IMG/VR virus record: IMGVR_UViG_2695420521_000002
Span: 1 to 64,000 of that record
Length of the DNA: 64,000 nt
Direction: 5' to 3' (one strand)
Origin: a virus
Taxonomy: Duplodnaviria; Heunggongvirae; Uroviricota; Caudoviricetes
Numbering within the stretch: the first letter of the stretch is position 1; each line of letters opens with the position of its first letter. Made by a program: the position numbers. Shown here piece after piece: positions 61,801-64,000 of the stretch.

Positions 61801-64000
61801 CCAGTGTTCTCAACGTTGTAGTGCCGGTTACGGTTCCGGCCAGGCCTCTTCCTCAACGGGGTGTTCTCCATACGGACTACCGTTTATTGGTCGTTCCTGC
61901 GGTTTATGTTGTGAAGCCAGATGCTTATCTTCTGGTTGCTTCAAAGAGCTGCACTTCCTCACAACGGTAAGGGGACTTCGTAGGGATTCGAACCCTCTGC
62001 CAAGCTCGGCGATCTCCGACGTCGCAAAATACCCTTACCTGTTGTGCTGGTGCCGATTAACGGACTCGAACCGCTGACATCCTGCTTACAAGGCAGGCGC
62101 TCTACCAACTGAGCTAAACCGGCATTGGCGATGGCGGATGGATTTGAACCATCGACCCGTTGATTAACAGTCAACCGCTCTAACCGCTGAGCTACACCAT
62201 CACTTGCCGGGTACGTCTCCGGCGAGGGCTTCCACCTCCGTATGCTTTTCGGCGCACCGCGCCCTGGCTGCAATTCGGTAACAGGGGATGCATAACCCTG
62301 GCTTCCAGCGTGATTAGCGCCTTCAGCATGACGGGATATACCCGTTACAAGAAATTCTCCCAGGATGCCATTAAGCAATGGCTGTTACGCTGAATGAAAA
62401 AGGACGTAACAGGTAAGGACGCTGACCAAAAGATGGCCCCTTCTCGCTCATCTGGTTAATCGAACCAGCGCCCTTGCCTGTTATGCCTCCCCGTTCCCTA
62501 ATACACAGACGGGGACACTCTGCGGTCGATTTTTTGACGGGGGACGACTCATACCCCGTGGCGTCTGGCTTCTTAGGCCGCTACCATCATCAGATCATCG
62601 TTTGCATTTACTTTAATGGTCAGTTTCTAAACCGCCGCAAAGTCGCTAACCATGACGAAAACCCTGAAAAAAAACGCCCACCCGAAGATGGGCAAACTGG
62701 AAGCTCGTAACGCACTTCGGAGTTGCCACTTAGGCGCATGGTCAACCTGGCAACTCGGTGGTTTGTCTGGGAGGACTAGGCCCAGCCATGCTTACCGCCG
62801 CGCCTGTCGCGGCTAACAGCTAAATCGCTCTATAAATCACGATTCATTGAGGCGATATTACACTAATAAATTTATTAGAGCAATACACCTAAAGCGTCAT
62901 GAGCTACACCTCGAGTGTCCCCCTTACAAGACACAGAACGTCTGGCAAAAAGAGGTTCCACTCTGAAGCCACTGTCATGATAAAGCTCTCTGATATTTGG
63001 CGCGCCACTGTTAGTAATGAGAACCTTTGCACCTCGACGATGAGCATCCGTCAACAGAGACACCAGGCGTTTTTGCTCTTCAAACTTAAAGTCATGACCG
63101 GAATAGTTCGTGAATCCCTCTGTATTTGGAAGCGGTTCATACGGCGGATCGCAAAAGATGACATCTCCTTCTCCGGCAGCTTCAATCACCGCTGCAAAAT
63201 CACCGCATACAAACTCAGACCGCCCTTCCGCACCGAGGAAGGCTTCCATCTCCTGTAATGGGAAATACGGAGTTTTATACTTCCCATAACCGACATTGAA
63301 CTCACCGGCCTGGTTGTAACGCGTCAATCCGTTAAAACAATGTCGGTTCAGGAACAAAAACGCCGCTGCGCGATGTAAATCATCATAGACTTGTTTGTTA
63401 AACGCATTCCGTACTGCCAGGTATCCTTCCTGTGTGTTGTAGTCCTGGAAGAAACGATGTGCCAGAGTGATAAGTGAATGCGCCTCGCGTTGCAGAGTCT
63501 TGTAAAAGTTAATCAGGTCAGCATTCACATCATTTAGCAGATTTTCCTGGTATCCGGCATTCATGAAGACAGCTCCGCCACCAACGAAAGGTTCAATCAG
63601 GCGCTTCCCTTCTGGCAAATAGCGAAAGATTTGTTCCAGAACACCAAATTTTCCACCAGCCCATTTGAATATGGACCGTTCGAATTCTGCCGCTGGTTTA
63701 ACTTTTCGCTCTTTTGTTTCACTTCCTTCTTTCTGCCGACATACGGCCTTAGTAATCCGATCGCCAATCCAGCGCATTACTGGTATTGCCATACTATTGC
63801 CGATCGCTTTGTAACGCGGTCCGTCAGCTGCAAGCATCGCGGCCTCTTCTTCGCTTAAATCTGGATAGTGATTGCGAAGATATGCCAGTTCATCTGAATT
63901 AACTTTTTTACGCTTTTCCGTCGGGATCAACGTATGCCCATCAGGAAAACCTTGCAGCCTTTCACATTCGACAGGGGTAAGACGGCGGACAGCTACTTCT

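Follow-up and report, generated by a model that had tools for sequence, protein, structure and literature searches.

A predicted tmRNA-derived core with a tag reading frame in the leader of the tRNA-ban operon of a P1-like phage-plasmid

In transfer-messenger RNA (tmRNA), the tRNA-like domain combines a 7-bp acceptor stem containing G3:U70 with a T arm and a 3' CCA end. The element described here, which lies in the leader of the tRNA-ban operon of a P1-like phage-plasmid, resembles the other, mRNA-like half of this molecule. The leader was analysed within a DNA stretch of 64,000 nt, referred to as the window (positions 1 to 64,000 of the IMG/VR virus record IMGVR_UViG_2695420521_000002, Caudoviricetes). 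In an exhaustive ssrA census of 2014, the gene was found among RefSeq phages only in mycobacteriophages, and Bacillus phage G and DS6A were named from outside RefSeq (PMC4131195). An ARAGORN survey of 2022 detected tmRNAs in 402 of 18,146 phages (PMC9004378). The mycobacteriophage DS6A encodes little more than the tRNA-like domain, and tmRNA is inhibited by a molecule of this kind (Hudson et al. 2014, PMC4131195). The core from the window would be comparable with the DS6A partial ssrA as a tmRNA of a mobile element or organelle cut down to one functional half. However, DS6A keeps the tRNA-like half whereas the core keeps the mRNA-like half. No earlier description of the mRNA-like half alone was found in the open-access literature. 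The tag peptide strings and a tmRNA-like or ssrA-like phage element had no prior description there either, subscription texts being outside the search.

The best described counterpart of the locus is the ban control region of phage P1. In the matching stretch of the P1 record (NC_005856), the end of dmt, the bivalent C1 operator Obanab (formerly Op72ab) and the promoters P1ban and P2ban are followed by a 'dicF-like region', trnA (Asn) and trnT (Thr), and later by the tci genes, trnI and ban. The operator, the promoter and the 'dicF-like' label are already known. The label spans 62657-62758 and is the sole RNA element described in the leader; P1 is among the most studied phages, and its leader nonetheless bears only this vague name. 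By sequence comparison, the 800 bases around the leader of the window had an identity of 97% with Salmonella phage SJ46 and of 95% with P1. The operator, the promoter, the overlap with the dmt stop and the tRNA order are shared with P1, whereas the window carries additional downstream tRNAs (Ser, Met) and a different plp-like gene. Homologues of the leader were present in 642 plasmid records, nearly all of them non-mobilizable P1-type replicons. An earlier reading of the window, made from the sequence alone (the sequence-only reading), had passed over the identity of the operator and leader with the annotated Obanab and P1ban elements and the 'dicF-like region', and had missed the tmRNA-derived core with its tag frame.

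The untranslated stretch extends on the minus strand from the P1ban start to tRNA-Asn (~62848-62202). A BLAST search of 50,697 phage records with the leader gave matches in 371 records, and outside the P1 group these covered only portions of the query, so the leader is modular. By this comparison it is a probable mosaic of RNA modules, designated A, B and C (Table 1), which are common to other phages via recombination. Seven P1-like leaders, including those of P1, P7, D6 and two Escherichia fergusonii plasmids, were aligned. The identity to P1 was 99.5% for module A, 98.6% for module B and 88.3% for module C. In D6 and the two E. fergusonii plasmids the upstream DNA is wholly different, whereas almost no differences were seen in the terminator, in module B and in the last ~145 nt ahead of tRNA-Asn.

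Table 1. Features of the ban leader and the adjacent tRNA genes in the window.
Feature	Coordinates	Strand	Basis
Bipartite C1 operator (P1 Obanab, formerly Op72ab)	62857..62884	both	consensus search, P1 record, ORF list
Promoter P1ban	62855..62883	minus	sequence reading; position of the annotated P1ban of NC_005856
Module A, 'dicF-like' element	62718..62812	minus	~76% matches to 43 lambdoid phage records
Intrinsic terminator/attenuator (predicted)	62667..62694	minus	terminator scan, 7-genome alignment
Module B, predicted tmRNA core without tRNA-like domain	62476..62664	minus	covariance model, BLAST, covariation, sub-threshold Rfam
Tag frame GCA AAC GAU GAU CUG AUG AUG GUA GCG GCC UAA (ANDDLMMVAA and stop)	62573..62605	minus	sequence
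PK2 and PK3, H-type pseudoknots (predicted)	62489..62558	minus	pair counts, RNAalifold
Module C1, long stem	62407..62483	minus	7-leader alignment, RNAalifold
Module C2	62202..62406	minus	7-leader alignment, RNAalifold
tRNA-Asn(GUU)	62201-62126	minus	ARAGORN; Rfam tRNA 72-73 bits
tRNA-Thr(UGU)	62123-62048	minus	ARAGORN; Rfam tRNA 72-73 bits
tRNA-like three-way junction	61960..62047	minus	fold z-score -3.7

Structure, tag frame and distribution of module B

The most conserved part of the leader, module B, was shown by comparative sequence analysis to be a predicted tmRNA-derived core with a tag frame and no detectable tRNA-like domain. In the order of the transcript it comprises the invariant GUUUUCGU, a small hairpin, a 5' stem UUUGCGG/CCAUUAAA, the resume codon, the tag frame, helix 5 and the pseudoknots (PK) PK2 and PK3. 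The loop of the 5' stem holds UAGAAAC and is PK1-like; the stem UUUGCGG/CCACAAA immediately upstream of the resume codon was also found by RNAalifold. A PK1-like fold would result if the loop paired with GUUUU, which is invariant at the 5' end; this GUUUU/GAAAC pairing is unproven because the bases never vary. In the predicted PK2, CGGGG (62558-62554) pairs with CCCCG (62542-62538) and GUCG (62548-62545) with CGAC (62528-62525). In PK3, CGCAGA (62524-62519) pairs with UCUGUG (62509-62504) and CCCCG (62514-62510) with CGGGG (62493-62489). The loop sequence of PK3 is GAUUAAUAA.

Pair counts were determined on 47 sequences that are not of the P1 type, using slid partners and 500 shuffles as controls. 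The predicted partners were paired in 97.8% of the cells compared with 35-52% for the slid controls. Changes on both sides were detected in 11 pairs. The number of double-change cells was 98 versus 27 ± 8 in the shuffles, and none of the 500 shuffles reached the observed value. Both stems of PK2 and of PK3 were backed by compensatory changes, and the first stem of each pseudoknot was independently recovered by RNAalifold. Covariation had been named as a check in the sequence-only reading, and the helices do covary according to both the pair counts and RNAalifold.

The resume codon GCA of the tag frame is located at 62605-62603 and the UAA stop at 62575-62573. The frame is preceded by ..GUAAAU, with U at -5 and A at -4, and the motif (A/G)UAAAU GCA or AUAUCU GCA was present upstream of and at the resume codon in all lineages displayed. 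Every copy reads ...(A/G)UAAAU GCA AAC GA(U/A)... and contains exactly ten codons followed by UAA (128 of 128 family members). The frame occurs in 34 nucleotide alleles, with the least variation at the second codon position and the most at the third. Synonymous codon differences amounted to 22.7% in the tag frame versus 3.0% and 10.8% in the other two frames. The residue classes D/E, F/Y, L/M and A/V are kept across the variants; besides the P1-type peptide of Table 1, these include ANDDVVLMAA, ANDDLMLMAA, ANDEQFLAVA, ANEEMYLAVA and ANDNAFLMAA. The stop codon lies between the two strands of a covarying helix, the outer pair of which is A-U in 25 and G-C in 22 sequences. Judged from this allelic variation, the tag frame was shown to be under a coding-type constraint.

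With 62670-62460 as the query, module B matched 293 phage records in BLAST. The hosts were Klebsiella (96 records), Salmonella (82) and Escherichia (71), and for the remaining records Serratia, Shigella, Cronobacter, Enterobacter, Aeromonas and Erwinia. The phages come from unrelated families and belong to Ackermannviridae, N4-like Gamaleyavirus, Drexlerviridae, Jersey-like siphoviruses, lambdoid phages and the P1 group; P22-like, Vi1-like and T1-like phages are among them, and almost none of the 293 records has an annotated feature at module B. With a degenerate pattern, module B was found in at least 119 IMG/VR contigs. It was present in 670 of 5426 complete E. coli genomes, at 583 places on plasmids and 152 on chromosomes; the E. 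coli places listed were mostly unannotated and the rest were merely called 'hypothetical protein'. The core is unannotated in P1, SJ46, P7, D6 and the RefSeq E. coli records as well. In a collection with one genome per species only six records contained module B, which indicates phage cargo and not a bacterial core gene.

The genomic neighbourhoods of module B vary. In the two E. coli prophages examined, both P22/lambda-like (loci L126 and L127), module B and the bracketed modules lie in an unannotated gap of ~1.07 kb that separates the Q antiterminator from the holin gene (locus positions 3141-4214/4245). The same Q-to-lysis niche is occupied by the late-leader small RNA (sRNA)/tRNA arrays of lambdoid phages (STnc100, PasD, AgvB, AsxR), which also contain tRNA or tRNA-like units; an STnc100-like sequence is found downstream in the window. 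In contrast to module B, which matches none of them, those RNAs are base-pairing sRNAs with Rfam models, and the survey of the arrays makes no mention of tmRNA (bioRxiv 10.64898/2026.05.13.724894). In the Jersey-like phage STGO-35-1, module B has its own promoter (TTGACA-17-TAGATT) 10 nt upstream, and the unit closes with tRNA-Met and a terminator. Among the 87 unique copies with enough flanking sequence, a same-strand tRNA was located within 1.5 kb downstream in 39 and within 600 nt upstream in 3.

Relationship to tmRNA and the tRNA-like domain

A covariance model was built from the phages outside the P1 type only, and it recovered a single, full-length copy in the window at 62646-62480 (88.2 bits, E 6.9e-22). 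The Rfam matches at module B were to tmRNA families only and had the same register in three lineages. The E-values of tmRNA_permuted in these lineages were 0.013, 0.0022 and 0.018, the window hit being at 62573-62679; beta- and alpha-tmRNA were matched too, and all the hits were below gathering (RF01850, 15-18 bits versus 84). aUAAaUGCaAACGAu...GCuGCcUAA is common to the RF04321 consensus and the phage element.

For comparison with viral tmRNAs, 65 environmental IMG/VR viral contigs (L140-L204) with slightly longer frames were pulled by a pattern of the resume context. ARAGORN called a tmRNA in 56 of the 65, mostly as permuted two-piece genes, and the tags included ANDNVAFALAA (most), ANDETAYLMAA and ANDNVALPMAA. 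The resume context UAAAUGCAAACGAU is common to these contigs and the module B family. The hidden Markov model of the family matched the viral tmRNAs at E ~1e-7 from the PK1 region through PK2. With the family covariance model, the one-piece tmRNAs of L151 and L154 gave 27.4 bits (E 1.8e-5) over the whole model span, and the permuted tmRNA of L147 gave 25 bits. In L151 and L154 the aligned part leaves out ~50 nt at each end, and these ends are the tRNA-like domain. The one-piece tmRNAs of L142, L151 and L154 are very small, ~241 nt.

Module B resembles tmRNA (RF00023; permuted RF01849-51, RF04321) in the PK1-like fold, the A-rich spacer and the mRNA-like domain, which consists of the alanine resume codon GCA, a 10-codon frame and a UAA stop within helix 5. 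H-type pseudoknots follow the frame in both. The U(-5) and A(-4) upstream of GCA correspond to the frame-setting nucleotides of tmRNA, a role reportedly played by U85 and A86 in E. coli. The frame begins with ANDD or ANDE and ends with hydrophobic residues and AA or VA. With phage tmRNAs in particular, module B shares the resume context and a significant profile and covariance-model similarity. It differs from tmRNA by its length of only ~190 nt, by the lack of the acceptor stem, G3:U70, T arm and CCA end, by two instead of three pseudoknots after the frame and by its position inside phage leaders heading tRNA arrays.

The tags of module B end with MVAA, LMAA or LAVA and not with YALAA; the E. 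coli tag is ANDENYALAA. In a large degron screen the terminal Ala-Ala was critical, Leu was preferred at the antepenultimate position, and YALAA was nearly universal in gammaproteobacterial ssrA (10.1101/2024.01.29.576913). The phage tags keep the AAND start, whereas the SspB-contact residues are replaced and the ends are V-A-A, M-A-A or A-V-A compared with L-A-A. This combination suggests that the phage tags are ssrA-like yet deliberately different.

Several results weigh against a tmRNA origin and a decoded frame. The RF04321 scores, 26.1 bits in the window to 33.4 bits in L004, were below the gathering value of 47. Direct sequence homology to E. coli ssrA was considered and rejected, as the alignment was in the right register and not significant (covariance model 12.1 bits, E 0.21; nhmmer 5.4 bits, rank 2 of 2001 sequences including shuffles). 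Neither the window nor any of 138 related loci (1.13 Mb) gave a tmRNA with ARAGORN in the standard and permuted modes, whereas E. coli ssrA was recovered in the same run and the control viral loci were called as given above. A search for a T arm with a 7-nt acceptor complement around the core gave nothing consistent. Inspection of the 5' hairpin, of the X/Y stems and of the tRNA-like modules next to them revealed no conserved chargeable acceptor with G3:U70; neither a one-piece nor a permuted tRNA-like domain was detected by ARAGORN or the custom search. Moreover, the Jersey-type promoter leaves no space for a 5' acceptor strand. The ARAGORN result, the absence of acceptor closure and the promoter spacing together indicate a family of tmRNA cores without the tRNA-like domain, and we know of no mechanism that decodes a tag frame without a linked alanyl-tRNA-like domain. 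In addition, the terminator is located upstream of module B, which makes the expression of module B dependent on read-through. The tag frame is partly within helix 5; its constraint could to some extent reflect inheritance or structure and not translation.

Possible roles of module B and alternative explanations

The explanation preferred here is that of a C1-repressed P1ban and a mosaic leader in which module B descends from a phage tmRNA and engages the rescue machinery, either with its frame decoded or in competition with the host tmRNA. The probability of this explanation is estimated to be roughly 0.55. After C1 repression is lifted, transcription would begin near 62848, the expected start of P1ban, from which ban is known to be expressed. 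A partial stop at 62694-62667 would produce a ~180-nt RNA homologous to the pre-DicF segment, while read-through would supply module B, the tRNAs and ban. The long double-stranded stems and the tRNA and tRNA-like junctions may be cut by RNase III, P or E, releasing module B as a ~190-nt stable RNA. Module B would have retained the pseudoknot, mRNA-like domain, helix 5, PK2 and PK3 of a phage tmRNA together with a selected frame, and lost the acceptor/T-arm domain. During lytic growth the RNA may engage SmpB and stalled ribosomes, and rescued peptides would then obtain a phage-specified ssrA-like tag in place of the host tag; alternatively, the RNA may compete with the host tmRNA. Decoding would also call for a source of an alanyl-tRNA-like function. 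A further proposal, regarded as doubtful, is that P1 and hundreds of enterobacterial phages encode a class of 'headless' tmRNA which is decoded in trans with the host Ala-tmRNA/SmpB or with a separate phage tRNA-like piece and rewrites the host proteolysis tag, giving it MVAA, LMAA or LAVA ends in place of ALAA.

A functional tmRNA-core RNA would add a missing category of tmRNA, the mRNA-like half without the tRNA-like half, and would point to a manipulation of ribosome rescue and of protein tagging by phages of many groups, both therapeutic and model ones. It would bear on two older problems, namely why some phages depend on the host tmRNA and what the role of the conserved ~1-kb non-coding Q-to-lysis gap in P22-like phages is. 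The element is unannotated or mis-annotated as a hypothetical coding sequence in hundreds of phage, plasmid and E. coli records, which a covariance model would fix.

According to one alternative, the leader acts purely in cis: the terminator attenuates the ban operon, the stems are processing or stability signals and the core is a functionless relic. The position of the terminator between the promoter and the operon, the bracketing of the modules by long stems and tRNA-like junctions, the enrichment of module B at the head of tRNA arrays and the lack of a tRNA-like domain in the ARAGORN and closure searches are in accordance with it. The explanation is nevertheless judged improbable, as a relic would not retain an indel-free 10-codon frame with coding-type variation over 34 alleles and compensatory changes in four helices. 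Module B is also the most conserved part of the leader (98.6-100% identity among P1-like genomes versus 88% for module C), and more than half of its copies are without a downstream tRNA. An untranslated decoy, which mimics the mRNA-like part of tmRNA and titrates SmpB, S1, RNase R or rescue-engaged ribosomes, is considered unlikely as well. The retention of a tmRNA core without a chargeable domain and the precedent of a partial-tmRNA competitor in DS6A (PMC4131195) point to such a role. However, a decoy needs a binding surface and not a peptide-coding pattern, and yet the third-position variation, the residue classes and the fixed ten codons were observed. Base-pairing with the host tmRNA was rejected, since the duplex energies with E. 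coli ssrA were no better than those of shuffled controls in a crude test. As is generally known, tmRNA is needed rather than harmful for several phages, such as lambda-immP22 and Mu.

That a small protein gene (<60 aa, or a coding sequence annotated in SJ46) accounts for the conservation is hardly credible. 'Hypothetical proteins' are called in the leader in SJ46 and by some PGAP annotations, and many copies of module B have no stop over 60-66 codons of the antisense strand. An antisense protein across module B was rejected because the frame-locked translations contain stops in many lineages and the frame shifts between families. The sequence-only reading had stated that the minus strand has no open reading frame (ORF) of 60 aa or more, which is not strictly true, as a 139-aa ORF (62378 to 61959) begins inside the leader. 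This ORF crosses the genes of tRNA-Asn and tRNA-Thr, and P1, P7 and the E. fergusonii plasmids have frameshifts or stops in it; it is therefore spurious. Frameshifts or stop codons in P1, P7, D6 or the E. fergusonii plasmids likewise interrupt the 78-, 54- and 41-aa ORFs. All 7 P1-like genomes retain two intact ORFs, 62192-62329 (minus, 45 aa) and 62204-62281 (plus, 25 aa), and both lie within a nearly invariant block. The 45-aa ORF ends inside tRNA-Asn and lacks a Shine-Dalgarno sequence, and by reading of the alignment most of the few substitutions in it are non-synonymous. None of the leader ORFs of at least 20 aa matched Pfam or PHROGs, and they were rejected as genes, being either broken in relatives or located in invariant sequence. 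The conserved small protein gene of <60 aa allowed for in the sequence-only reading was thus not found to explain the leader. In SJ46 (L002) the hypothetical coding sequences 2810-3229 and 3245-3562 run through tRNA-Asn/tRNA-Thr and antisense to the tmRNA core; both frames are interrupted in P1, P7, D6 or the E. fergusonii plasmids, which makes mis-annotation likely.

An origin from decayed tRNA genes is very improbable, and so is a DicF-type antisense sRNA inhibiting ftsZ. The tRNA origin had been suggested by the T-arm-like hairpin CTGGTTCGATTAACCAG (62468-62452), which sits in the variable insert of the C1 stem. Its TTCGA T-loop, GGTTCGATTAACC, reads GGTGTGATTAACC (GTGTGA) in P1, P7 and D6, so the T-loop sequence is absent from P1 itself. 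No tRNA gene or pseudogene with a cloverleaf and a conserved T loop was detected in 62205-62870 by ARAGORN or Rfam. The sequence-only reading had left a choice between a structured leader, a non-coding RNA and decayed tRNA genes; the covarying helices and the broken ORFs favour a structured non-coding RNA, and the decayed tRNAs are not supported.

The DicF origin has the 'dicF-like' label of P1 in its favour, and module A (leader positions 45-139) is truly homologous to DNA of the dicB operon. In phage mEp460 the module A match is at 2001-2097, just upstream of dicB, and DicF proper, which served as a positive control in Rfam (76.7 bits), lies downstream of it at 2122-2173. There was no DicF (RF00039) match in the window at E<=10, and the identity of the leader with DicF was rejected. 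By homology, module A appears to be the flank just 5' of DicF in lambdoid dicB operons and not DicF itself. Since DicF is absent from the window and the homology is confined to the 5' flank, 'dicF-like' would denote a pre-DicF homology with the terminator in the place of DicF. Module A contains the hairpins GCCGCG..CGCGGC (62813-62797) and GAGUUGCCA..UGGCAACUC (62756-62720). The latter is kept in the pairwise alignment with one compensatory C-G to U-A change (GUUGCCA/UGGCAAC versus GUUGUCA/UGACAAC). Compared with the DicF/dicB operon of lambdoid (Qin-type) prophages, module A is ~76% identical to the segment 5' of DicF and shares the hairpin, whereas the 52-nt DicF is missing from the P1-type leader. 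The control is also different: the P1-type promoter is controlled by C1 and the dicB operon by DicA/DicC.

Operator, terminator and downstream elements

The exact C1 consensus ATTGCTCTAATAAATTT was found at 62868-62884 on the minus strand with 0 mismatches, and the second half-site, inverted and overlapping the first, has 2 mismatches and occupies 62857-62873 of the plus strand. The 16-bp core CTAATAAATTTATTAG, common to both half-sites, is a perfect palindrome. The 'perfect palindromic double operator' of the sequence-only reading holds for the core and for one half, and not for the second half. The operator was correctly seen to overlap the dmt stop and to face leftward, as the TAA (62877-62875) is inside the operator and P1ban reads leftward with -35 TTGCTC (62883-62878), a spacer of 17 nt and -10 TAATAT (62860-62855). 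The 17-bp asymmetric consensus thus overlaps a sigma-70 promoter, as in C1-controlled operators. A simple promoter scan of the sequence gave no flag at P1ban. In the window, 15 C1-consensus-like sites with up to 3 mismatches were observed versus 0.23 expected by chance, among them matches at 12899, 32045, 32128 and 45223, which fits a P1-type regulon of C1-controlled operons. The fold energy of the first 190 nt of the leader was unremarkable (z = -1.2).

All three stable hairpins claimed in the sequence-only reading were present. One of them, GAGTTGCCA...TGGCAACTC, is the minus-strand hairpin of module A at 62756-62720, and another is the T-arm-like hairpin. The remaining one, GCCCATCTTCGGGTGGGC followed by T8, had not been recognised as a terminator: the GCCCACCCGAAGATGGGC hairpin was predicted by the terminator scan to be an intrinsic (Rho-independent) terminator on the transcribed strand. 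It is composed of a 7-bp G+C-rich stem and a UUCG loop (stem-loop 62694-62675), then G and U8. The terminator and module B are conserved jointly, also in D6 and the E. fergusonii plasmids with their unrelated upstream DNA.

Module C covers the last 269 nt of the leader and matched P1-type genomes only, with 88-93% identity. The long stem of C1 is formed by UAACAGGCAAGGGCGCUG (62483-62466) and CAGCGUCCUUACCUGUUA (62424-62407) and can be extended to ~25 bp. It is kept with C-G/U-A/U-G exchanges, while the enclosed insert could not be aligned in the E. fergusonii plasmids; the stem is a candidate RNase III site. Stems of this type, CACAACAGGUAAGRGC...GCUCUUUCCGUUGUG, bracket modules in lambdoid, Jersey-like and other phage arrays. 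C2 consists of a variable hairpin region and a nearly invariant block of ~145 nt (~62345-62202), and its last element is the hairpin GCCGGAGACGUACCCGGC, four bases ahead of tRNA-Asn. tRNA-Asn and tRNA-Thr are the first genes that the leader feeds. In the phage D6 record (L139) these two tRNAs (888-1038) run against the orientation of the leader, whereas they run along with it in P1, P7 and the window; this may be a strand error in the D6 record.

The tRNA-like junction downstream of tRNA-Thr has a D-like arm UGCGACGUCGGAGAUCGCC, a canonical T arm GGGUUCGAAUCCC and no anticodon arm, and rests on a ~20-bp stem CACAACAGGUAAGGG.../...CCCUUACCGUUGUG. The motif was found in 45 of the 138 loci with the tmRNA core, and it brackets or flanks the core in some lambdoid contigs. 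In L030 it is located 36 nt upstream of the TTTTCGT motif of the core (-62 from the motif start), and in L012, L049 and L063 185-188 nt downstream of the core. In P1 (L001) it lies ~636 nt downstream of the TTTTCGT start, and the plp coding sequence is annotated across it on the opposite strand. The junction cannot be claimed as a partner of module B, because it lacks G3:U70 and occurs in only 45 of the 138 loci.

Several minor observations were made further downstream. A second long bracketing stem, CAACGUUGAGAACACUGG / CCAGUGUUCUCAACAUUG, is present at ~61640-61836 (minus). After this stem, and immediately ahead of tRNA-Ser, comes a tRNA-like terminal module (UGUGGUGAAUGCACAGGCUGAUGUGC...GUCGGAGUUCAGCACCGACCACCACAA), which in L012 and L030 is also found at the close of lambdoid arrays, in front of their terminator. 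The genes of tRNA-Ser(UGA) (61540-61626) and tRNA-Met(CAU) (60130-60205), both on the minus strand, are not at that position in P1. The best Rfam model for the tRNA-Ser gene was tRNA-Sec with 43.5 bits, which is below gathering. A sub-threshold Rfam match to STnc100 (38.7 bits versus gathering 47, E 3.9e-6) was found at 61311-61430 (minus), between tRNA-Ser and an upl-like ORF. The plp-like gene (60233-61060) encodes a 275-aa lipoprotein and is on the same strand as the additional tRNAs, unlike plp of P1.

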